Origin: a virus
Lineage: Duplodnaviria; Heunggongvirae; Uroviricota; Caudoviricetes
DNA: 10,096 bases
Virus record (IMG/VR): IMGVR_UViG_2734482585_000006
Reading direction: 5' to 3' (one strand)
The first letter of the stretch is position 1. Each line of letters begins with the position of its first letter. Of this stretch, positions 1 through 10,096 are shown piece by piece. The notes beneath the pieces were generated by a model. That model did not search any database and had not been told where the DNA came from. It saw only the letters and a program-made list of their open reading frames with translations. Position numbers and translations under genes: made by a program.

Positions 1-18
1 CTCTCGTCTGGGGAATAT

Positions 19-107
19 CTCCCCGGCAGCCTTCAGGGAAAAATATCATCAGATGGCTGCTTAAAAAAAGAACAAATGGTAGTGTCCGCTATTGCCAGTA
101 CACCTCA
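19..107. repeat. Left arm of perfect 89-bp terminal inverted repeat (partner 10008-10096)
   Basis: Base-by-base comparison: 19-107 is the exact reverse complement of 10008-10096. Identity breaks at 108 (t) vs 10007 (c). The right arm ends at the last base of the window, so the repeat may extend further. Confidence 0.9.
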
Positions 108-306
108 TCCATCACCGAAAAAAATTGGCTTTTACACCATTGGCGATAAAAGCATTTACCTGTATGACCTACGCCGCATGGATGAAATCATGGAGGCTCT
201 TGATAATCGTTCGTCGATGGATTGGTGTGTTGCTGTTCATGATATGAATGCAGGGTTTGATGAAAAGATTTTGTTCCCCTCATCAGTTGAAAGCACTGCG
301 GGTTAA
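76..306 (+). CDS. Hypothetical protein; start uncertain, frame is open back to position 1
   Basis: 76-aa ORF ending TAA 304-306, immediately followed by a strong RBS for the next gene. The ATG at 76 lies inside the terminal inverted repeat and the same frame has no stop back to position 1, so this may be the 3' part of a longer gene or a chimeric frame created at the repeat junction. Confidence 0.3.
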   Translation: MVVSAIASTPHPSPKKIGFYTIGDKSIYLYDLRRMDEIMEALDNRSSMDWCVAVHDMNAGFDEKILFPSSVESTAG

Positions 307-316
307 GGAGTAACAC

Positions 317-484
317 ATGACCACTATTACCAAAGAACGTATTGAATTGTTCATTAAAAACCCGCTTGAAAACGGGCTTACCCGTGGTGAACAAATGGAA
401 CTGGCACGGATTGCGCTGGCATCGCTGGAAGCAGAGCCGGTTGTGTTCTGGTTTGAAAAATATCAAGAAGGGGCTACGGCATGA
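317..484 (+). CDS. Hypothetical small phage protein (55 aa)
   Basis: ATG at 317 preceded by consensus SD AAGGAG (305-310) at 6-nt spacing; stop TGA 482-484 overlaps the ATG of the next ORF (ATGA). Not in the ORF track (below length cut-off). Contains the motif [10 protein letters not shown], shared with the next ORF. Confidence 0.5.
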
Positions 485-825
485 CGACTTTTACCAGAGA
501 GCAGTTAATAGCTCACGCAGAGGAGACTATTGAAGCACAGAGACTGTGCATACCGGGCACAATCGACCATGACATCATCCGCACATATAAGATGGATATT
601 GCTGTTCTGGAAATCGCACTGGTATCGCTGGCAGCAGAGCCAGCCGGTAAATTGCATGAATACAAACCAGTGGGATATCAGCGTCTGGTCGATGAGTTAA
701 CCATGCTGGTAAAGCAGTTAACCTGGCAACTGAGGAAAGCGAAGCCAGACTGCAAATTACCGGATAAGGCGATGAGTTATCTGGAGCGGAACGGACTGAT
801 AAGCGTGGAGGATATTTTACGATGA
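481..825 (+). CDS. Hypothetical phage protein (114 aa)
   Basis: ORF coupled to the upstream gene (ATGA overlap at 481-484) and to a downstream mini-ORF (ATGA at 822-825). N-terminus MTTFTREQL resembles the N-terminus of ORF 6009-6251 (MTFTPEQL); internal motif [10 protein letters not shown] echoes the 55-aa ORF. Confidence 0.55.
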
Positions 826-905
826 CCTGGCCTGAAGCATTAACAACGGTAGGAATTGCGATGGCGGTGGCGCTGGTGGTGTATTCGATTTGCCGCTGGG
901 GATAA
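822..905 (+). CDS. Possible small hydrophobic peptide (27 aa)
   Basis: ATG 822 overlaps the stop of the upstream gene; translation [27 protein letters not shown] has a single hydrophobic stretch. Short, so a chance ORF is possible. Confidence 0.3.
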
Positions 906-1116
906 AAACGGTTTGCGGGAAAAGGAGAGTTAAGTAGAATTGCAGCGGGTGCTTGAGGCTATCTGTCTCAGGCATGAACACCAAAAGGCAGATAGAGAAA
1001 AGCCCCAGTTAACATTACGCGTCCGGCAAGACGCTTAACATTAATCTGAGGCTCAATCTATGAACGGCAAATCTAGGTTAGCCTCTTACGTGCCGAAAGG
1101 CAAGGAGAAGCAGGCT

Positions 1117-1272
1117 ATGAAGCAGCAAAAGGCGATGTTAATCGCCCTGATCGTCATCTGTTTAACCGTCATAGTGACGGCACTGGTAACGAGGAAAGAC
1201 CTCTGCGAGGTACGAATTCGAACCGGCCAGACGGAGGTCGCTGTCTTCACAGCTTACGAACCTGAGGAGTAA
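1117..1272 (+). CDS. hok: Hok/Gef family type I toxin (small membrane-depolarising peptide)
   Basis: Translation MKQQKAMLIALIVICLTVIVTALVTRKDLCEVRIRTGQTEVAVFTAYEPEE has the Hok-family pattern (N-terminal TM helix, two conserved Cys, EVA-x-F-x-AYE tail) and closely resembles chromosomal HokD/RelF as I recall it. AGGAG at 1103-1107 precedes the ATG. An in-frame upstream ATG at 1060 would give a 70-aa form. Confidence 0.85.
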   Translation: MKQQKAMLIALIVICLTVIVTALVTRKDLCEVRIRTGQTEVAVFTAYEPEE

Positions 1273-1340
1273 GAGACCAGGCGGGGGAGAAATCCCTCGC
1301 CACCTCTGATGGGGCAGGCATCCTCAATGCACCCACACTT

Positions 1341-1368
1341 AACCCGCTTCGGCGGGTTTTTGTTTTTA
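1341..1368 (+). terminator. Rho-independent terminator downstream of hok
   Basis: Stem cccgc (1343-1347) / gcggg (1352-1356) with ttcg loop, followed by tttttgttttt. Confidence 0.6.
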
Positions 1369-1492
1369 TTTTCAACGCGTTTGAAGTTTTAGATGGTGCC
1401 GGAATAGAATCAAAAATACTTAAGTAGCGCGCAGGGAGAAGAGGGATGGACCCCGAACAGGGGAGTGCTATTTATCTGGAAGGATTCTGTTG

Positions 1493-1774
1493 ATGAAAAT
1501 CGAAGAATTACGTGAAATTTTTAGTGAAGATGGCCTCTATACTGTGCGCGTTGAGAATGGCGCTATTGTCAGCCACTGCCTTCCAGACTACACAATTCTG
1601 ATAATTCAGCCGTCTTTGCCAGCAGGCACGGGCGGCGCTCTCACGCATTTAAATCTGATTGGTACCAGCATCCCCCATGCACTGAAGAACAGGCCGAATG
1701 GCTCATTCAGTGTTACCGCAGGCGCGGATGCGAGGTTAAAAAAGCCCTTAGCCTCGACTACCGTCACTGGATAA
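1493..1774 (+). CDS. Hypothetical protein (93 aa); sits where rem lies in the K-12 Qin prophage, by recalled gene order only
   Basis: ATG at 1493 with GGAAGGA about 8 nt upstream (the track starts at TTG 1490). No recognisable motif. Confidence 0.4.
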   Translation: MKIEELREIFSEDGLYTVRVENGAIVSHCLPDYTILIIQPSLPAGTGGALTHLNLIGTSIPHALKNRPNGSFSVTAGADARLKKPLASTTVTG

Positions 1775-1849
1775 TCTCCGTCAGGCTCCCTTACTCCGAA
1801 CGGCCAACGCGTCCGTCCCGCACATTCCAGCAACGGATCTGGAGGTAAT

Positions 1850-2908
1850 GTGCGGGTATTACTTCGACCTGTTCTGGTACCGGAACTCGGTCTGGTTATC
1901 GTTAAGCCAGGCCGTGAATCAATGTCAGCATTCCATAACGGCAGAATACTGGTGGAGCCGGAACCAAAAAGCATGCGTAATCTGCCGTCCGGGGTCGTTC
2001 CTGCCGCTCGCCAGCCGCTGGTGGAAGACAAAACATTGCTGCCGTTTTTCAGTAACGCACGGGTGATTCGTGCTGCTGGTGGTGCTGGTGCATTGTCTGA
2101 CTGGCTGTTGCGCCATATTAAATCCTGCCAGTGGCCACACGGCGATTATCATCACAGCGAAACCGTCATTCACCGTTATGGTACCGGCGCAATGGTGTTG
2201 TGCTGGCACTGCGACAACCAGCTGCGTGACCAGACATCCGAATCACTCGAGCAACTTGCTCATCAAAACCTGTCAGCATGGATGATTGACGTCATCGGTC
2301 ACGCAATAAGCGGTACGCAGGAGCGTGAATTATCTCTGGCTGAATTATCCTGGTGGGCGGTCCGCAATCAGGTGGCGGACGCGCTACCGGAAGCGGTATT
2401 ACGTCGTTCGCTGGGGTTGCGTGCGGAAAAAATTCGCTCTGTGTACAGTGAAAGCGACATCATACCGGGAGAGCAGACAGCCACCAGCATACTGAAGCAG
2501 CGCACAAAAAATATTGCGTTACTGCCTCACGTCCACCAGCAACAGAACCCACCACAGGAAAAGACGGTGGTCAGCATTGCCGTTGATCCGGAGTCACCGG
2601 CTCAGTATCTCCAGCGCCAGAAATCACAACGGGAAGAGATGCCTGTATACACGCGCTGGGTAAAAACGCAGAAATGCATGACGTGTGGCAATCAGGCAGA
2701 TGATCCGCATCACATCATTGGTCATGGACTGGGAGGGATGGGAACAAAGGCTGATGATTTGTTTGTTATTCCGTTATGCCGTAAATGCCGTAACGAACTA
2801 CATGCCGGAGTAAAAGATTTTGAAGAGAAACACGGCAGTCAGCTGTTGTTGCTGATTCGTTTTTTAATGCACGCGAGAAATTCGGGTGTTCTGAAGTGGA
2901 AAGCATAA
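1850..2908 (+). CDS. DUF968-like prophage protein (YdfU-like) with C-terminal HNH/zinc-finger-like Cys-His motif
   Basis: 352-aa ORF; GTG 1850 is 4 nt after GGAGG (1841-1845); alternative ATG at 1922. C-terminal CMTCGNQADDPHHIIGH...CRKCRNELH is a CxxC...HH...CxxC...H pattern. Stop TAA 2906-2908 abuts the rusA ATG at 2909. Family call is from memory. Confidence 0.7.
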   Translation: MRVLLRPVLVPELGLVIVKPGRESMSAFHNGRILVEPEPKSMRNLPSGVVPAARQPLVEDKTLLPFFSNARVIRAAGGAGALSDWLLRHIKSCQWPHGDYHHSETVIHRYGTGAMVLCWHCDNQLRDQTSESLEQLAHQNLSAWMIDVIGHAISGTQERELSLAELSWWAVRNQVADALPEAVLRRSLGLRAEKIRSVYSESDIIPGEQTATSILKQRTKNIALLPHVHQQQNPPQEKTVVSIAVDPESPAQYLQRQKSQREEMPVYTRWVKTQKCMTCGNQADDPHHIIGHGLGGMGTKADDLFVIPLCRKCRNELHAGVKDFEEKHGSQLLLLIRFLMHARNSGVLKWKA

Positions 2909-3289
2909 ATGACCGAGCGCATAGAATTTGTTTTACCTTACCCGCCGACGGTGAACACTTACTGGCGTCGTCGTGGCAGCACATATTTTGTATCAAAAGC
3001 CGGGGAGCGTTATCGCCGGGCAGTGGCGCTTATTGTTCGCCAGCAGCGGCTGAAATTAAGCCTGTCCGGAAGGTTGGCAATAAAAATTATTGCAGAACCA
3101 CCGGATAAGCGCCGCCGTGACCTGGACAATATTCTGAAAGCGCCGCTGGATGCGCTGACGCATGCGGGGTTGCTAATGGACGATGAGCAGTTTGATGAAA
3201 TCAATATCGTTCGTGCTCAGCCAGTATCTGGTGGACGTCTGGGGGTGAAGATTTATCCCATAATGCTTGAAGGGCAGGTCAAAAAATGA
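2909..3289 (+). CDS. rusA: Crossover junction endodeoxyribonuclease RusA (Holliday junction resolvase), copy 1
   Basis: 126-aa protein with RusA-family motifs (YPPTVNTYW, PDKRRRDLDN, GGRL); stop overlaps the Q start (ATGA at 3286-3289). Confidence 0.9.
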   Translation: MTERIEFVLPYPPTVNTYWRRRGSTYFVSKAGERYRRAVALIVRQQRLKLSLSGRLAIKIIAEPPDKRRRDLDNILKAPLDALTHAGLLMDDEQFDEINIVRAQPVSGGRLGVKIYPIMLEGQVKK

Positions 3290-3976
3290 AACTGGAAGAT
3301 TTACCGAAATACTACTCCCCAAAATCCCCCGGCCTGACTGATGCATCGGCCTCAACGTCGAAAGATGCGCTGAGTATCACTGATGTGATGGCCGCGCAGG
3401 GCATGACACAGAATCGGGCTGAGATGGGGGTTTCTGCGTTCCTTGGGAAAATGGGCATTAGTATGAATGACAGAGAGCGGGCAACAGAATTGCTGACAGA
3501 ATATGCACTCAGTCGGTGTGATCGCGTGGCGGCGTTAAGAAAACTCCCGGCAGAAATAAAACCGGCAGTGATGCGTATTATGGCTTCGTATGCGTTTGAA
3601 GATTATGCCCGTAGCGCGGCGAGCAAAAAACAGTGCNNNNNNNNNNNNNNNNNNNNNNNNNNNNNNNNNNNNNNNNNNNNNNNNNNNNNNNNNNNNNNNN
3701 NNNNNNNNNNNNNNNNNNNNNNNNNNNNNNNNNNNNNNNNNNNNNNNNNNNNNNNNNNNNNNNNNNNNNNNNNNNNNNNNNNNNNNNNNNNNNNNNNNNN
3801 NNNNNNNNNNNNNNNNNNNNNNNNNNNNNNNNNNNNNNNNNNNNNNNNNNNNNNNNNNNNNNNNNNNNNNNNNNNNNNNNNNNNNNNNNNNNNNNNNNNN
3901 NNNNNNNNNNNNNNNNNNNNNNNNNNNNNNNNNNNNNNNNNNNNNNNNNNNNNNNNNNNNNNNNNNNNNNNNNNNN
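3286..3976 (+). CDS. Late-gene antitermination protein Q, copy 1 (3' part N-masked; true stop unknown)
   Basis: The first 117 aa before the mask are about 95% identical to the full-length copy at 6622-7476. Sequence after the mask (3977 onward) matches the sequence just downstream of the copy-2 stop, so the stop is probably inside the mask. The mask is 340 nt where copy 2 has about 507 nt, so the two copies differ in length. Confidence 0.7.
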
Positions 3977-4012
3977 TGGGCGTTTTATGCCTGACGTTAG
4001 AAGAGTTTCTAC

Positions 4013-4037
4013 AACCCGCCGCCGAGCGGGTTTTTTA
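4013..4037 (+). terminator. tR'-like Rho-independent terminator downstream of Q copy 1
   Basis: cccgc (4015-4019) / gcggg (4026-4030) stem followed by tttttt (4031-4036); same sequence as the terminator after Q copy 2. Confidence 0.65.
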
Positions 4038-4156
4038 TGACTGAAATCGCGTCAGTACAGTAAACGCGCTGGTGGCGGTGAATACCTGTCTTTCAGCTTG
4101 CTGGCTTTTTCGACAAGAGTTATTGGTGTGTCACGTTAACCGGAAAAGGAAAAGAC

Positions 4157-4354
4157 ATGCTAAAACAGCAGGATATGACAGAAACCGCCAGAGTGGTGTT
4201 TAATGAATTAAGCGTTACCGAACCGGCGACAGTCGGGGAGATAGCGCAGAATACTTACCTTTCACGCGAACGCTGCCAGTTAATACTGACCCAGCTGGTT
4301 ATGGCGGGTCTGGCAGACTATCAGTTCGGTTGTTACAGACGCCTTCCGCAGTGA
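4157..4354 (+). CDS. Small winged-helix DNA-binding protein, PapI/FaeA-like (65 aa)
   Basis: AAGGA (4146-4150) 6 nt before the ATG. The segment ATVGEIAQNTYLSRERCQLILTQLVMAGL resembles the recognition-helix region of PapI/FaeA-family regulators (compare PapI [28 protein letters not shown], from memory). The stop lies inside a terminator hairpin. Confidence 0.5.
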   Translation: MLKQQDMTETARVVFNELSVTEPATVGEIAQNTYLSRERCQLILTQLVMAGLADYQFGCYRRLPQ

Positions 4355-4366
4355 AGGCTTTTTTAT
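4341..4366 (+). terminator. Rho-independent terminator after the small winged-helix gene
   Basis: Perfect 6-bp stem gccttc (4341-4346) / gaaggc (4353-4358) followed by ttttttat. Confidence 0.6.
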
Positions 4367-4381
4367 TTGTGGTAAATGGGC

Positions 4382-4412
4382 GGCTGGTGGGTGTTAGGGG
4401 CACCCACCAGCC
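4382..4412. repeat. Perfect 12-bp-stem hairpin / palindrome
   Basis: ggctggtgggtg (4382-4393), 7-nt loop, cacccaccagcc (4401-4412); no U-tract follows, so not an obvious terminator. Lies about 90 nt upstream of the methyltransferase gene. Confidence 0.5.
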
Positions 4413-4504
4413 ATCTGCTCATGCGTTGGGTTCACAAGCAAACCTCAGGCCCACTGCTTTGCGCAAAAGCAGAATGAGCCTATCAGAGACAGGCTTAATG
4501 ATCC

Positions 4505-5563
4505 ATGCTTAATACTGTAAAAATATCCAGTTGTGAGTTAATCAACGCCGACTGCCTGGAATTTATCCGGTCGTTACCCGAAAATTCTGTTGACCTGATA
4601 GTCACGGACCCGCCGTACTTTAAAGTGAAGCCTGAGGGCTGGGATAACCAGTGGAAGGGCGACGATGATTACCTGAAGTGGCTGGACCAGTGTCTGGCGC
4701 AGTTCTGGCGGGTGCTGAAACCTGCCGGAAGTCTTTACCTGTTCTGTGGTCATCGCCTGGCATCTGATATCGAAATCATGATGCGTGAACGCTTCAGTGT
4801 GCTGAACCATATTATCTGGGCGAAGCCGTCCGGACGCTGGAACGGATGCAACAAGGAAAGCCTGCGGGCGTATTTCCCCGCCACAGAGCGCATTCTGTTC
4901 GCGGAACATTATCAGGGGCCGTATCGTCCGAAAGATGCCGGGTATGCGGCGAAGGGCAGTGCACTGAAACAGCATGTGATGGCCCCGCTGATTTCTTACT
5001 TTCGTGATGCGCGAGCTGCCCTGGGGATAACGGCAAAACAGATTGCAGATGCCACAGGAAAGAAAAACATGGTGTCGCACTGGTTCAGTGCCGGTCAGTG
5101 GCAGTTGCCGAATGAAAGCGATTATCTGAAATTACAGGCGCTGTTTGCCCGGGTGGCAGAAGAGAAGCATCGGCGTGGTGAACTGGAAAAGCTCCACCAC
5201 CAGCTGGTGGATACGTATACCTCACTGAACCGGCAGTATGCGGAGCTGCTGAGTGAATATAAACATCTGCGGCGGTATTTTGGCGTGACGGTGCAGGTGC
5301 CGTATACCGATGTGTGGACGCATAAACCGGTGCAGTTCTATCCCGGGAAACATCCGTGCGAAAAACCGGCAGAAATGCTGCAGCAGATAATCAGCGCTAG
5401 CAGTCGTCCGGGTGACCTGATTGCAGATTTTTTCATGGGGTTGGGTTCGACAGTGAAAGCGGCACTGGCGCTCGGGCGTCGTGCAATTGGCGTTGAGCTG
5501 GAGACTGAACGTTTTGAGCAGACGGTTCGGGAAGTACAGGATTTAGTCAGCCAGAACGGATGA
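4505..5563 (+). CDS. Orphan DNA N6-adenine methyltransferase (beta-class, motif IV before motif I)
   Basis: 352-aa ORF with catalytic DPPY early (LIVTDPPYF) and the AdoMet-binding FxGxG near the C-terminus (DFFMGLGST); this order defines beta-class amino-MTases. No restriction endonuclease partner is visible. Weak RBS. Confidence 0.85.
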   Translation: MLNTVKISSCELINADCLEFIRSLPENSVDLIVTDPPYFKVKPEGWDNQWKGDDDYLKWLDQCLAQFWRVLKPAGSLYLFCGHRLASDIEIMMRERFSVLNHIIWAKPSGRWNGCNKESLRAYFPATERILFAEHYQGPYRPKDAGYAAKGSALKQHVMAPLISYFRDARAALGITAKQIADATGKKNMVSHWFSAGQWQLPNESDYLKLQALFARVAEEKHRRGELEKLHHQLVDTYTSLNRQYAELLSEYKHLRRYFGVTVQVPYTDVWTHKPVQFYPGKHPCEKPAEMLQQIISASSRPGDLIADFFMGLGSTVKAALALGRRAIGVELETERFEQTVREVQDLVSQNG

Positions 5564-5603
5564 TATTGAAGAATTAATTACGCGTCGTTATTATGCGGCT
5601 CCC

Positions 5604-5679
5604 GGCCCTTTAGCTCAGTGGTGAGAGCGAGCGACTCATAATCGCCAGGTCGCTGGTTCAAATCCAGCAAGGGCCACCA
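5604..5679 (+). tRNA. tRNA with CAU anticodon (ileZ-like tRNA-Ile2 or tRNA-Met), copy 1
   Basis: Hand-folded cloverleaf: acceptor ggccctt/aagggcc, D-arm gctc/gagc, anticodon loop cuCAUaa, T-loop ttcaaat, discriminator A, CCA encoded. The phage context suggests ileZ as in Stx phages. Confidence 0.85.
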
Positions 5680-5686
5680 TCACATA

Positions 5687-5724
5687 CCGCCATTAGCTCA
5701 TCAGGAAAGAGCGCCAGCCTTCGA
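5687..5724 (+). tRNA. 5' part of a second tRNA (anticodon loop cuUCGa, possible tRNA-Arg), truncated by the N mask
   Basis: ccgccat acceptor strand, U8, D-arm gctc/gagc, anticodon stem ccagc, loop cttcga, then N. The 3' half cannot be seen. Confidence 0.35.
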
Positions 5725-6008
5725 NNNNNNNNNNNNNNNNNNNNNNNNNNNNNNNNNNNNNNNNNNNNNNNNNNNNNNNNNNNNNNNNNNNNNNNNNNNN
5801 NNNNNNNNNNNNNNNNNNNNNNNNNNNNNNNNNNNNNNNNNNNNNNNNNNNNNNNNNNNNNNNNNNNNNNNNNNNNNNNNNNNNNNNNNNNNNNNNNNNN
5901 NNNNNNNNNNNNNNNNNNNNNNNNNNNNNNNNNNNNNNNNNNNNNNNNNNNNNNNNNNNNNNNNNNNNNNNNNNNNNNNNNNNNNNNNNNNNNNTGAACA
6001 ACCAGACA

Positions 6009-6251
6009 ATGACTTTTACCCCTGAACAATTGCGTAAACACGCGCAGGAAATGCTGCGTCATGCTGAACAACTCGAAAAAACGGGCATAACAAAAGACGC
6101 TATCCGTAAAGATATGGTACCCGCGCTTCGGGAACTGATGCAGGCGAAGCATCGCGCACAGAAAGCAGTAGATGAGCTGGTGGACTGTGTGGCAGAGCTG
6201 GAAACCAGAGTCGGAAAGTTTGAAAAACTGGTGCAGGAGGTGCTGCGCTGA
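6009..6251 (+). CDS. Hypothetical small helical protein (80 aa)
   Basis: ORF MTFTPEQLRKHAQEMLRHAEQLEK...; stop TGA 6249-6251 overlaps the rusA copy-2 ATG by one base (TGATG). No SD, and the frame is open upstream into the N mask. N-terminus is paralogous to ORF 481-825. Confidence 0.5.
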   Translation: MTFTPEQLRKHAQEMLRHAEQLEKTGITKDAIRKDMVPALRELMQAKHRAQKAVDELVDCVAELETRVGKFEKLVQEVLR

Positions 6252-6625
6252 TGCGCCATGAGTTTATTTTACCTTATCCGCCGACGGTGAATACTTACTG
6301 GCGACGTCGTGACAACACATATTTTGTATCAAAAGCCGGTGAGCGTTATCGCCGGGATGTGGCGCTTATTGTCCGTCAGCAGCGACTGAAATTAAGCCTG
6401 TCCGGAAGACTGGCGATAAAGATTATTGCAGAGCCACCGGATAAGCGCCGTCGTGACCTGGACAATATCCTGAAAGCACCACTGGATGCACTGACACATG
6501 CGGGAGTGTTAATGGACGATGAGCAGTTTGATGAAATCAATATCGTTCGTGGTCAGCCAGTATCTGGTGGACGTCTGGGGGTGAAGATTTACCCCATAAT
6601 GCATGAAGAGCAGGTCAAAAAATGA
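6251..6625 (+). CDS. rusA: Crossover junction endodeoxyribonuclease RusA, copy 2
   Basis: 124-aa protein about 93% identical to copy 1 with the same RusA motifs; ATGA overlap with Q copy 2 at 6622-6625. Confidence 0.9.
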   Translation: MRHEFILPYPPTVNTYWRRRDNTYFVSKAGERYRRDVALIVRQQRLKLSLSGRLAIKIIAEPPDKRRRDLDNILKAPLDALTHAGVLMDDEQFDEINIVRGQPVSGGRLGVKIYPIMHEEQVKK

Positions 6626-7476
6626 AACTGGAAGATTTACCGAAATACTACTCCCCAAAATCCCCTTGCCTGACCGATGCATCGGCCTCAACGTCAAAAG
6701 ATGCGCTGAGTATCACTGATGTGATGGCCGCGCAGGGCATGACACAGAATCGGGCTGAGATGGGGTTTTCTGCGTTCCTGGGGAAAATGGGCATCAGTAT
6801 GAATGACAGGGCGCGGGCAACAGAATTACTGGCAGATTATGCACTCAGTCGGTGCGATCGTGTGGCGGCGTTGAGAAAACTTCCGGCAGAAATAAAACCG
6901 GTAGTGATGCGCATTATGGCTTCGTACGCTTTTGAGGATTATGCCCGCAGCGCAGCGAGTAAAAAGCAGTGCCCTTGTTGCTATGGGGAAAAATTTATTG
7001 AAAGCGTAGTTTTTACAAACAAGGTCCAGTATCCGGATGGTAAGCCGCCGGTATGGGCAAAGTGTACGAAAGGTGTGTATCCGTCTTACTGGGAAGAATG
7101 GAAAAAAGTCAGGGAGGTGGTAAAAGTTGCCTGTCCGGAGTGTGGCGGAAAGGGTGAGGTTTCCACCGCCTGTAAGGATTGCCGTGGGCGTGGTGTCGCC
7201 ATTCATCGTGAAGAGTCGGTAAAACGTGGTATGCCTGTTATCAGAGACTGCCAGCGTTGTGGTGGTCGTGGCTATGAAAGACTACCATCAACGGAGGCAT
7301 TTAATGCTATATGCGAGGTGACAAACCAGATAACACGCGCGTCATGGGAAAAAACAGTTAAGAAATTCTATGATGCGCTGGTGACTCGGTTTGATATTGA
7401 AGAAGCATGGGCTGAGCGGCAGTTAAAAAAGGTAACTAGGTTGATTTTTCCGGAATCTGTGGTAAATTCGTCATAA
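6622..7476 (+). CDS. Late-gene antitermination protein Q, copy 2 (full length, 284 aa)
   Basis: Position immediately after rusA and before a promoter-proximal terminator and tRNAs is the canonical Q slot in lambdoid phages. Carries CPCC plus three CxxCxGxG motifs (CPECGGKG, CKDCRGRG, CQRCGGRG). Family assignment is by position and recollection, not a search. Confidence 0.75.
   Translation: MKLEDLPKYYSPKSPCLTDASASTSKDALSITDVMAAQGMTQNRAEMGFSAFLGKMGISMNDRARATELLADYALSRCDRVAALRKLPAEIKPVVMRIMASYAFEDYARSAASKKQCPCCYGEKFIESVVFTNKVQYPDGKPPVWAKCTKGVYPSYWEEWKKVREVVKVACPECGGKGEVSTACKDCRGRGVAIHREESVKRGMPVIRDCQRCGGRGYERLPSTEAFNAICEVTNQITRASWEKTVKKFYDALVTRFDIEEAWAERQLKKVTRLIFPESVVNSS
7441..7468 (+). promoter_or_regulatory. 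Candidate late promoter (pR'-like) at the 3' end of Q
   Basis: TTGATT (7441-7446), 16-nt spacer, TAAATT (7463-7468); a start near 7475 would give a roughly 60-nt transcript ending at the terminator at 7516-7540, analogous to lambda 6S RNA and the qut region. Match by eye only. Confidence 0.3.
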
Positions 7477-7515
7477 CTATGGGCGTTTTATGCCTGACGT
7501 TAGAAGAGTTTCTAC

Positions 7516-7540
7516 AACCCGCCGCCGAGCGGGTTTTTTA
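7516..7540 (+). terminator. tR'-like Rho-independent terminator downstream of Q copy 2
   Basis: cccgc (7518-7522) / gcggg (7529-7533) stem followed by tttttt (7534-7539). Confidence 0.65.
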
Positions 7541-7578
7541 TTGCGGAATTAATTACGGACCGTTATTATTCTGCTCCC

Positions 7579-7654
7579 GGCCCTTTAGCTCAGTGGTGAG
7601 AGCGAGCGACTCATAATCGCCAGGTCGCTGGTTCAAATCCAGCAAGGGCCACCA
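7579..7654 (+). tRNA. tRNA with CAU anticodon (ileZ-like tRNA-Ile2 or tRNA-Met), copy 2
   Basis: Identical 76-nt sequence to 5604-5679. Confidence 0.85.
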
Positions 7655-7661
7655 TCACAAA

Positions 7662-7741
7662 CCGCCATTAGCTTATCAGGAAGAGCAGACGACACGATAA
7701 CAGGGTTGTTGGTGCGGGGGCGGGTCCCCGATGGCGGTCCA
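7662..7741 (+). pseudogene. Degenerate tRNA-like element (possible decayed second tRNA)
   Basis: Perfect 7-bp acceptor pairing ccgccat (7662-7668) / atggcgg (7730-7736), discriminator T, CCA, and a D-arm (gctt/gagc), but no canonical anticodon arm and a G-rich non-canonical T-loop. Its 5' part matches the partial tRNA at 5687-5724 and then diverges. Confidence 0.3.
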
Positions 7742-7754
7742 TTATCGGTATTCA

Positions 7755-7831
7755 GCGTTGTTAGCTCAGCCGGACAGAGCAATTGCCTTCTAAGCAATCG
7801 GTCACTGGTTCGAATCCAGTACAGCGCGCCA
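7755..7831 (+). tRNA. tRNA-Arg (anticodon UCU, reads AGA)
   Basis: Hand-folded cloverleaf: acceptor gcgttgt/acagcgc (one G-U), D-arm gctc/gagc, anticodon stem attgc/gcaat with loop cuUCUaa, T-arm actgg-ttcgaat-ccagt, CCA encoded. Likely argN/argO-type phage tRNA. Confidence 0.85.
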
Positions 7832-7941
7832 TATTCATTCTTCCAGATTCCTTCCGGCAGAGCCTTATACTGAAATATACCTGGCTCAGGATATTGTTGA
7901 AAATATTTTATGTTTGTCAAAAATAAAAGTTCTGTTAAGTA

Positions 7942-8295
7942 TTGATTGAGTGTTTGTTATACGGTCTAATGGTTTTTTCAGCATTAAATATTTATCATTC
8001 ATATGGTGTGGGTAGAGTGAATATTGATGAGGCGTCGGGGTGTTTCATCCTTAGGCAGCGTATTGATATAGTCAATGCAGCACGAGCAAAGGCCTTCAGC
8101 CGTTTGACAGTTTTGTTCTGTACTCCTGATCGTCTTTCGGGAAGAGACGTTATTATTCTGAATAGTGATGCTATACAGAGGGTTTGCGATGAGTTCATGG
8201 TTGCTAATTCAGAATTATTTGCTCTTGTTCAGGAGTACAACAGAATAGCCAGGACCTGTGGTATGGATGAACTTCGGATTACTCATCTGGGGTAG
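7942..8295 (+). CDS. Hypothetical cargo protein (117 aa from ATG 7942; alternative starts ATG 7969, GTG 8017)
   Basis: Longest ORF in the AT-rich block downstream of the tRNAs. No family recognised, and not Stx A or B. The 5' end overlaps promoter-like AT-rich sequence, so the true start may be internal. Confidence 0.35.
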   Translation: MIECLLYGLMVFSALNIYHSYGVGRVNIDEASGCFILRQRIDIVNAARAKAFSRLTVLFCTPDRLSGRDVIILNSDAIQRVCDEFMVANSELFALVQEYNRIARTCGMDELRITHLG

Positions 8296-8476
8296 ATACA
8301 TATCTGGATTATCACCTGTTACGGTAAAAAGTGATTGCTTACTGTTTTTGTGAATGGCATTGCAGCAGCCGGATAATGTCAGTGCTGGCTGACGGTGTGC
8401 TGGTGGCGGGTGTGGTGGTTGTTGCTTTCCCGTTGCTGAAAAAGAAAACGCCAGACTGTTAGCCGGGTATCAGTTA

Positions 8477-8789
8477 NNNNNNNNNNNNNNNNNNNNNNNN
8501 NNNNNNNNNNNNNNNNNNNNNNNNNNNNNNNNNNNNNNNNNNNNNNNNNNNNNNNNNNNNNNNNNNNNNNNNNNNNNNNNNNNNNNNNNNNNNNNNNNNN
8601 NNNNNNNNNNNNNNNNNNNNNNNNNNNNNNNNNNNNNNNNNNNNNNNNNNNNNNNNNNNNNNNNNNNNNNNNNNNNNNNNNNNNNNNNNNNNNNNNNNNN
8701 NNNNNNNNNNNNNNNNNNNNNNNNNNNNNNNNNNNNNNNNNNNNNNCTGTTGTCTGGTTTGCGGGGAGTTTGTTAAAAGAAACTGGCAT
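8477..8789 (-). CDS. Minus-strand cargo gene, N-terminus only (MPVSFNKLPANQTT...); remainder N-masked
   Basis: ATG at 8789-8787 on the minus strand with AGGGGG 7 nt upstream; the ORF runs into the mask, so its length and end are unknown. The track extension to 8379 depends on the frame through the N run and is not trusted. Confidence 0.3.
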
Positions 8790-8996
8790 GGTGAATCCCC
8801 CTGTGCGGAGGGGCAATCAGCGAGTAGGTATATGGGATAATCGCGGATTCAGGTGCTGGTACTGAATTCACCGGGAGGCACCCGGCATCATGCAATGGCA
8901 CATAGCGCCACTCTCCAGCCCTCTCCGGAGGGGCTTTTCTGTGCCGGATACATCACAGTTTCTGGAACCTTAGGTACTACAGTATCAGTCAGGGTG

Positions 8997-9620
8997 CTAT
9001 ATTTTCAGATGTGATGAAAGCCTGTCAGCAGGCAGGGCGTATCGGAAATGACCCAGTAGAGAAAACGTTGNNNNNNNNNNNNNNNNNNNNNNNNNNNNNN
9101 NNNNNNNNNNNNNNNNNNNNNNNNNNNNNNNNNNNNNNNNNNNNNNNNNNNNNNNNNNNNNNNNNNNNNNNNNNNNNNNNNNNNNNNNNNNNNNNNNNNN
9201 NNNNNNNNNNNNNNNNNNNNNNNNNNNNNNNNNNNNNNNNNNNNNNNNNNNNNNNNNNNNNNNNNNNNNNNNNNNNNNNNNNNNNNNNNNNNNNNNNNNN
9301 NNNNNNNNNNNNNNNNNNNNTTGCAGAGTGCAACGGTTATTAAAGCATTCATTCAATACGTTATCTGTATTTGTAGGGCATTCCTGGCTATTTTTGATTG
9401 AATTCCAGAATGTTTTATTGAATGGTACTACGTTGTAAATGGTTACAGGTAGCACTTTGTTATTGAGCATGATGCCTGTGTGAGTCAGTGTAAATATACT
9501 TTCAGGAGGTAAGAAAGCATCCGATTGATACCAGATTATTAATTTTATTTTACTCCATATGACTGAAAAAGATATTCCGCATGATGGCTGGATAACTGTA
9601 TCAATCACAATCCACTTCAT
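8997..9620 (-). CDS. Minus-strand AT-rich cargo gene (first 100 aa visible: [34 protein letters not shown]...), middle N-masked, end uncertain
   Basis: ATG at 9620 (minus) with AAGGA at 6-nt spacing; 100 codons are open before the mask. The mask is 250 nt (not a multiple of 3), so the stop at 8997 is not established. No family recognised. Confidence 0.45.
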
Positions 9621-9880
9621 TTAGTTTCCTTGTTTATGCCTTGCTGGTGATGTTCTGAAAAGTATAAATGATATTTTTGAATGTAAACCATAGAGCAGAA
9701 TTATTTTTCTGATGTTGTTTATTGTTTATTTAAATGCAGGGTGGTTTATATCTCGTCTTGTAGTTTATCCATGCATATCTGCTTGATAATCAGGTTTTTA
9801 TTTAAGGTATGGTTTTGTGTTTTTTCTGTATTACATGTCAGGTATTTTAAAGAATTATTTTTCAGATGGTGGAAAGAACC

Positions 9881-10054
9881 ATGGCATTTAAACACTATGA
9901 TGTTGTCAGGGCGGCGCCGCCGTCAGATCTTGCGGAAAAGCTGACACATAAACTGAAAGAGGGCTGGCAGCCGTTTGGTAGTCCGGTGGCCATAACCCCT
10001 TATACCCTGAGGTGTACTGGCAATAGCGGACACTACCATTTGTTCTTTTTTTAA
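9881..10054 (+). CDS. Small conserved-looking phage protein (57 aa, MAFKHYDVVRAAPPSDLAEKLTHKLKEGWQPFGSPVAITPYTLRCTGNSGHYHLFFF)
   Basis: ATG 9881 has a purine-rich stretch (GGTGGAAAG) just upstream; the track start 9866 has none. Diverges from the minus-strand cargo gene across an AT-rich intergenic region. The last 47 nt of the CDS and the 42 nt after it form the right arm of the terminal inverted repeat. Confidence 0.5.
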   Translation: MAFKHYDVVRAAPPSDLAEKLTHKLKEGWQPFGSPVAITPYTLRCTGNSGHYHLFFF

Positions 10055-10096
10055 GCAGCCATCTGATGATATTTTTCCCTGAAGGCTGCCGGGGAG
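10008..10096. repeat. Right arm of perfect 89-bp terminal inverted repeat (partner 19-107)
   Basis: Exact reverse complement of 19-107; runs to the last base of the window. Confidence 0.9.

Follow-up and report, generated by a model that had tools for sequence, protein, structure and literature searches.

The 10,096-nt viral stretch examined here (IMG/VR record IMGVR_UViG_2734482585_000006, Caudoviricetes; the whole stretch is referred to as the window in this text) carries two copies of a late-control module, one behind the other, each with a rusA gene, an antiterminator gene Q, an intrinsic terminator and tRNAs. We conclude that the window is very probably a Shigella sonnei short-read contig or scaffold that joins pieces of two degraded lambdoid prophages, subsequently called A and B, and that the side-by-side position of the two modules is artefactual. 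The module elements themselves are real and already known, and they make up ordinary late-control regions; the tandem is most likely a product of scaffolding.

The two parts of the window belong to two different places in finished chromosomes. We located these by exact-protein look-up of the DNA methyltransferase of copy 1 (4505-5563) and of the Q protein of copy 2 (Q2). Window positions 1-3636 are 99.97% identical to the A locus of CP104423.1 (L009, where they align to 5322-8957), and positions 3977-5724 are 100% identical to it. Positions 5995-8476 are 99.96% identical to the B locus of the same chromosome (L019, aligned to 9374-11855), and positions 9321-10096 match it at 100%. Locus A lies at 1.86 Mb and locus B at 2.53 Mb in CP104423.1, at 1.83 and 2.49 Mb in CBDDMI010000001.1, and at 2.10 and 1.32 Mb in HE616528.1, a distance of 0.66–0.78 Mb in the three chromosomes sampled for both loci. 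HE616528.1 is S. sonnei 53G, and CP019689, a B-locus match, is S. sonnei 75/02 (PMC5447701). A preliminary description of this DNA, made from the letters of the window, had recognized late-control regions from different lambdoid phages, and the matches of about 100% to two S. sonnei prophage remnants bear this out. Its further proposal, a head-to-tail join or a single prophage with two Q genes in series, finds no support, since the loci are this far apart and only 270 N stand between the copies in the window. Long-read assembly, to confirm that both copies are contiguous in one genome, had been suggested there as a check, and what the finished genomes contain is two separate prophages at different places.

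The surroundings of the two loci are uniform. Ten finished or long assemblies have the exact methyltransferase protein in their A locus, and ten finished assemblies have the exact Q2 protein in their B locus. All 10 A contexts show the order IS3-family transposase (insertion sequence (IS) IS600), small open reading frames (ORFs), hok, DUF968, RusA (126 aa), Q (273 aa), orf65, methylase and three tRNAs, and in all 10 either IS600 or a DUF1737-SASA esterase gene comes next. The B contexts (10/10) read istA and istB (IS21 family), the small gene ORF85, RusA (124 aa), Q (284 aa), tRNAs, DUF3927, PmrD/IraM, a truncated DUF1737 gene and IS600. The tRNA set of locus A is CAU, UCG, UCU, that of locus B CAU, UCU. 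The small RNA (sRNA) STnc100 lies between the tRNA-Arg genes and the right IS600 in prophage A, and between DUF3927 and iraM in prophage B. A neighbouring second module is absent from all 10 A and all 10 B contexts. A 122-nt segment separates the IS21-family element from ORF85 and matches, at 100% identity, the 3' end of a replicative helicase gene, the usual upstream neighbour of ORF85, which adjoins its 5' side in Escherichia coli FDAARGOS_944 and in one metagenome contig. Prophage B thus has its own IS-truncated left border and is not preceded by A.

The ends of the window also point to a draft assembly. The sequence begins and ends about 100 nt into IS600 copies, which argues for a short-read contig or scaffold and not for a slice of a finished chromosome. 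The left terminus (1-107) is a 100% match to the annotated IS600 end in NZ_CP065613.1, the genome of FDAARGOS_944 (L003, 9706-9812), and the right terminus (10008-10096) forms an inverted repeat with positions 19-107, to which it is 100% complementary. In CP104423.1, the corresponding IS600 copies flank different loci, one bordering A on the left and the other bordering B on the right, with about 0.67 Mb between them.

Four runs of N, to which the preliminary description gave no weight, interrupt the window, and each switch between A and B falls at one of them. The first (3637-3976, 340 N) stands where the finished locus A has 515 nt, including 343 nt that are identical in A and B. The second (5725-5994, 270 N) is the sole link between copy 1 and copy 2, and its flanks match different chromosomal loci. 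At the third (8477-8746, 270 N), all relatives compared (L001, L003, L019 and L029) have 41 nt, and the fourth (9071-9320, 250 N) separates a tail of A type from the iraM region, which is of B type. The window thus contains no uninterrupted sequence across the copy 1–copy 2 junction, only the 270 N of the second run.

We looked for this junction elsewhere. A pattern bridging positions 5724 and 5995 gave 0 matches in IMG/VR and in the Joint Genome Institute (JGI) metagenome contigs. MegaBLAST searches of 5,426 complete E. coli genomes with the whole window and with a junction-spanning query revealed no collinear tandem, and in 0 records of this set did any place cover at least 80% of the junction query. 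The E. coli places with 79–83% coverage proved to be single modules whose pieces had been merged non-collinearly (H1 and H26 were inspected). A search for ORF80 in the GTDB representative genomes returned five loci (in Shigella flexneri, an E. coli and Klebsiella), with the tandem in none. Of the 36 occurrences of tRNA-Arg(UCG) in IMG/VR, 35 have tRNA-Arg(UCU) next, most of them continuing into the STnc100 region, and ORF85 follows in 0 of the 36. The lone exception to the UCG-UCU order is the draft scaffold L065, where an IS lies inside the tRNA. In the only metagenome contig with ORF85, the helicase gene upstream of it is intact. In the reverse complement of L065, the element inside the prophage A tRNA-Arg(UCG) spans about 1870-3208; it is of the IS4 family, with a 370-aa DDE_Tnp_1 transposase, sits 27 nt beyond the point corresponding to window position 5724, and is presumably IS186.

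Conceivably, the source strain does carry the tandem. In that case a rearrangement would have set the B segment (helicase remnant, ORF85, rusA2, Q2 and onward) behind the A tRNAs, giving two Q proteins of nearly the same specificity and two PR'/tR' sites in series. Rearrangement at IS copies is indeed seen in S. sonnei chromosomes, and several IS-flanked inversions have been reported (PMC12795559). One of the chromosomes that we compared, LR213449.1 (L016), offers an example: the genes normally found to the right of B, from a 203-aa ORF through Dam, here adjoin the IS600 at the left of A, pointing to a large IS600-mediated inversion between the two copies. The N-runs may also hide a true junction. 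Against such a rearrangement, N-free junction sequence was not found in any set searched. The flanks of the junction (tRNA-Arg(UCG) on one side, helicase remnant and ORF85 on the other) share no homology, for which reason we also rejected a homologous crossover or a duplication junction at this point. The 270 nt are too short for an IS, yet the left border of B is an IS21-family element in every genome, and in the related draft L065 the IS4-family element interrupts locus A 27 nt further along. The other three N-runs contradict the real distances as well. A real tandem would require a non-homologous fusion within 270 nt of two loci bordered by different ISs, together with three more hidden structural differences, and we consider it very improbable.

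A and B share exact repeats at which an assembler or scaffolder could connect their pieces, the joins appearing as N-runs. The repeats measure 343 nt (Q 3' part), 130 nt (STnc100 region), 109 nt (IS600 end), 69 nt (tRNA-Arg(UCU)), 63 nt (leader and terminator), and 50 and 36 nt (tRNA-Ile); two further ones are 56 and 55 nt long. Short reads cannot span them. IMG/VR scaffolds from other drafts (L035, L036, L039, L040, L055 and L065) contain the same pieces in mutually incompatible orders. L035 reads A-c1, N, B, N, A-c2, and L039 reads A-c1, N, ORF85-rusA-Q, N, Q2, A-c2; in L036 and L040, ORF85-rusA2-Q2 runs directly into the orf65-methylase part of A; L055 has the methylase twice; and L065 reads A-c2, IS, N and then the tRNAs of B. 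The gaps in these scaffolds are single Ns, whereas the N-runs of the window are 250–340 long.

One piece of the window is itself mixed. In the alignment of piece 8747-9070, which includes an STnc100-type sRNA (8757-8946, + strand; Rfam RF02076, 122.5 bits), the first diagnostic bases are B-like and those past the 130-nt exact repeat A-like. Homologous exchange or gene conversion between A and B would yield hybrid loci of this kind, for example B-left/A-right through the 130-nt STnc100 repeat, and would make the mosaic partly biological. The switch from a B-like 5' part to an A-like 3' part indeed falls within that repeat, the hybrid is contiguous with B in drafts L029 and L065 (c3, 41 nt, hybrid, 55 nt, IS600), and the reciprocal combination, A-left/B-right through tRNA-Arg(UCU), occurs in L078 and L055. 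However, the hybrid is missing from all 20 complete-genome loci examined: the exact 8747-9070 string was found only in the draft-derived L029 (2709-3032) and in L065. Its carriers are short-read drafts, and a 130-nt exact repeat is a classic site for a path switch. Either gene conversion really took place between the prophages in one lineage, or assemblers switched paths repeatedly here. That exchange between the prophages shaped the mosaic seems to us possible but rather doubtful, and the rusA-Q tandem would not be produced either way.

Each prophage has its own copy of STnc100, with an identical core of 130 nt. Locus A of strain 53G contains a second, diverged STnc100 unit further downstream (L013, about 11850-12100).

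Several observations do not sit easily with a scaffold of two prophages. The N-run borders at 5724 (in the middle of a tRNA-Arg), 5995 (just past the helicase remnant) and 9070 lie off the edges of the A/B repeats, and the four N-run lengths are all multiples of ten, as estimated gap sizes seldom are. The runs could be deliberate masks over real sequence; that they are scaffold gaps is what we infer. In addition, the sample comprised about 30–37 long contigs per protein, so that a rare and truly rearranged lineage may have escaped it.

Two specific accounts of the N-runs were tried. Masks that preserve length are unlikely, as Q1 would need to have lost 175 nt and the region after DUF3927 to have gained 229 nt, each change lying exactly under a mask in a genome that is elsewhere 99.96–100% identical to the references. 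Gaps left by repeat collapse and bordered at the edges of A/B repeats fit only in part, and a uniform k-mer model of the borders gives inconsistent overhangs of about 60 and about 83 nt. Because the repeat-edge and k-mer fits are only partial, the exact way in which the scaffold was built can be given only as a presumption. The N-runs may also conceal IS-end fragments on either side of the scaffold join, since the IS4-family element of L065 lies 27 nt beyond 5724 and the IS21-family element of B ends 122 nt before 5995.

Whatever their arrangement, the two modules are genuine diverged copies, as is clear from the self-BLAST identities of the window and from codon differences that are mostly synonymous. 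Copy 1 consists of rusA (2909-3289, + strand; 126 aa; PF05866, E=1.5e-16), the first 117 codons of Q (3286-3636, + strand), whose remainder lies under the first N-run and whose finished counterpart has 273 aa, the 3' part of the PR' leader with the terminator (3977-4037, + strand; found by terminator scan and 100% identical to 7480-7541), and, behind the methyltransferase, a tRNA(CAU) (5604-5679, + strand). Copy 2 comprises rusA (6251-6625, + strand; 124 aa; PF05866, E=1.8e-16), Q (6622-7476, + strand; 284 aa with CXXC zinc-ribbon repeats; PF03589 Antiterm, E=7e-55), a candidate tR' terminator (7516-7540, + strand; terminator scan) about 67 nt past the presumed transcription start, and a tRNA(CAU) (7579-7654, + strand) that is the same as in copy 1. 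The ORF listing, the tRNA search and the repeat search agree with the elements and coordinates of the preliminary description, and PF05866 for rusA and PF03589 for Q2 support its gene names. The comparison of the window with itself that it proposed recovers both copies: 2924-3636 against 6260-6972 at 92.1% over 713 nt (rusA and the 5' part of Q), 3977-4038 against 7480-7541 at 100% over 62 nt (leader and terminator), and 5564-5712 against 7539-7686 at 93.3% over 149 nt (tRNA region).

The rusA copies differ by 22 synonymous and 10 non-synonymous codon changes, and the visible 5' parts of Q by 19 synonymous and 6 non-synonymous ones, an excess of synonymous changes that is far beyond chance. 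Both rusA copies encode a full-length RusA domain (PF05866 profile positions 1–123 of 124). At 92% identity, with scattered and mostly synonymous differences, a recent duplication was rightly discounted in the preliminary description, and the identity that it noted for the tRNAs and terminators is exact: the two tRNA(CAU) copies agree in 76 of 76 nt, and the hairpins at 4013-4037 and 7516-7540 have the same sequence.

Its statement that the Q genes differ in length stands for the finished loci, where Q1 has 273 and Q2 284 aa; in the window itself Q1 runs into an N-run, so that its full length is not visible there. The shorter Q1 is due to an 8-bp indel (TAACAAGG) directly 5' of the PR'-like −35 element (L009 9424-9431 against window 7438-7441), which brings in an earlier stop. 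The proteins share 263 of 273 aligned residues (about 96% identity), and the promoter-to-terminator segments of A and B differ by one base. The span given there for the two modules ends at 7831, which is the 3' end of tRNA-Arg(UCU) in prophage B (7755-7831, + strand), an element with no readable partner in copy 1.

Both modules have a Q-family antiterminator gene and, shortly downstream of it, an intrinsic terminator, as in a lambdoid late-control unit. Reference Q1 (a 273-aa protein from L009 8607-9428; PF03589, E=1.6e-53) and Q2 belong to the same family, and no other Q family was matched in the scan. A putative PR'-like late promoter with a qut-like region was read by eye at 7441-7480 (+ strand), overlapping the last Q2 codons. 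It has a −35 element TTGATT (7441-7446), a 16-nt spacer and an extended −10 element TGgTAAATT (7460-7468), followed six bases past the −10 by a −10-like pause element AACTAT (7475-7480; AACGAT in copy A) and then GGG. The promoter scores 8/12, below the threshold of the consensus scan, and is therefore absent from the scan output; for this reason we treat the PR'/qut assignment as tentative. The terminators at 4013-4037 and 7516-7540 are hairpins with a 7-bp GC-rich stem and a T-run. The tRNA(CAU) is called Met by ARAGORN, and its homologue in related genomes is annotated by PGAP as tRNA-Ile (lysidine-type CAU). The order tRNA(CAU), then Arg tRNAs, 3' of Q is met with in both loci; we take these tRNAs to be a phage-borne rare-codon cluster of the ileZ/argN/argO type known from Shiga toxin (Stx) phages.

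By analogy, RusA would resolve Holliday junctions, while a Q of the QuuQ type (PF03589) would load onto sigma70-paused RNA polymerase at the PR'-like promoter overlapping the last Q codons. The modified polymerase would then pass the terminator about 67 nt downstream and reach the tRNAs and late genes. Each module would thus be a normal lambdoid late-control unit, as far as promoter, qut and Q activity can be predicted from sequence. Since the proteins and the promoter–terminator segments are nearly identical, Q1 and Q2 would each be expected to act at both sites in trans, wherever these are located.

Known phages show the same layout. The Stx2a-converting phage Stx2_EH1910 (LC567834.1) resembles A in its order of ydfU (DUF968), rusA, quuQ, a small ORF, a DNA methylase, tRNA(CAU) and two tRNA-Arg genes. 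Its tRNAs are followed by stx2AB, iraM and a nanS-like esterase gene, whereas the S. sonnei loci have no stx there; its rusA-Q region and copy 2 agree at 89.8% identity. Insertions of IS600, an IS21-family element and IS1 have reduced both S. sonnei prophages to remnants.

In the temperate coliphages mEp460_ev081, vB_EcoS-640R1 and vB_EcoS-813R8, the rusA, Q and terminator region is 96.2–96.3% identical to copy 2 over 1.3 kb, with one module per genome. These phages differ from B in having an upstream DUF968-like gene (annotated as 'Q') in place of ORF85, and other downstream cargo. The likeness to the Q/PR'/qut/tR' system of lambda lies in a Q gene just 5' of a putative promoter with a TAAATT −10, a −10-like element, a short leader and an intrinsic terminator, and we presume that the geometry of the PR'-like site is that of lambda PR'/qut. 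Here, however, Q is a PF03589 protein of the QuuQ type with CXXC zinc-ribbon repeats and 273–284 aa, its last codons overlap the putative promoter, and the leader measures about 67 nt, compared with 194 nt for the 6S RNA of lambda. As an assembly, the window resembles mis-scaffolded drafts of IS-rich Shigella genomes, with contig ends in IS termini, collapsed near-identical prophage segments and two loci interleaved through Ns, and it departs from them in its long N-runs (250–340), all multiples of ten.

The remaining features of the A stretch (1-5724) are those of its finished counterpart. Directly 5' of rusA1 lies a DUF968 (YdfU-like) gene with an HNH-like C-terminus (1850-2908, + strand; PF06147, E=2.6e-62). 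The cargo between the terminator and the methylase is orf65 (4157-4354, + strand; 65 aa), for which a profile search gave a weak winged-helix match; this 65-aa gene is also present in related loci, including that of Stx2_EH1910. The methyltransferase (4505-5563, + strand) is a 352-aa N6/N4 DNA methyltransferase (PF01555, E=7.9e-42). The stretch ends with the 5' half of tRNA-Arg(UCG) (5687-5724, + strand; L009 11183-11220, within tRNA-Arg(tcg) at 11183-11259), which is interrupted by the second N-run. Further upstream we observed a hok/sok type I toxin–antitoxin locus (947-1272), with the sok RNA at 947-1122 (RF01794, 112 bits) and a Mok/Hok ORF at 1060-1272 whose homologue is labelled hokD by PGAP. 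At position 1580/1581, S. sonnei 53G (L013) and CP029794.1 (L017) have 250 additional nt in the Rem-gene region; these are absent from both the window and CP104423.1, which places the window in a CP104423.1-type lineage.

The B part (5995-8476 and 9321-10096) opens with ORF85 (5995-6251, + strand), a small coiled-coil-like ORF that has 80 aa if started at the ATG at 6009 and 85 aa as called elsewhere. Positions 7655-7700 of copy 2 are a degenerate remnant of the tRNA-Arg(UCG) of copy 1, in which ARAGORN calls no tRNA. Near the right end lie the gene for the anti-adaptor iraM (9321-9620, − strand; PmrD fold, PF11183), whose 3' end is under the fourth N-run, and a DUF1737 gene (9866-10054, + strand; PF08410) truncated by IS600 at 10008. 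The truncation point (about 10010) is common to E. coli strains 131 and FDAARGOS_944, in which IS600 does not follow. The latter genome, deposited as 'E. coli' (L003), carries a B-type module that is 99.3% identical, with an IS600-split helicase gene upstream, and has a Shigella-like look; its Q has 273 aa, compared with 284 aa for Q2 of the window.

Were the tandem real after all, it would be a modest curiosity, as Q1 and Q2 are about 96% identical and each would probably be active at both sites anyway. The practical lesson is one of caution: with repeats of 60–340 nt common to prophage remnants and hundreds of IS copies, short-read Shigella scaffolds fuse unrelated loci, and apparent 'tandem modules' across N-runs should not be taken as genome structure. 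For the biology of the organism the finding matters little. In S. sonnei, the late-control regions of several decayed lambdoid prophages are nearly identical and follow the well-known layout of Stx phages.

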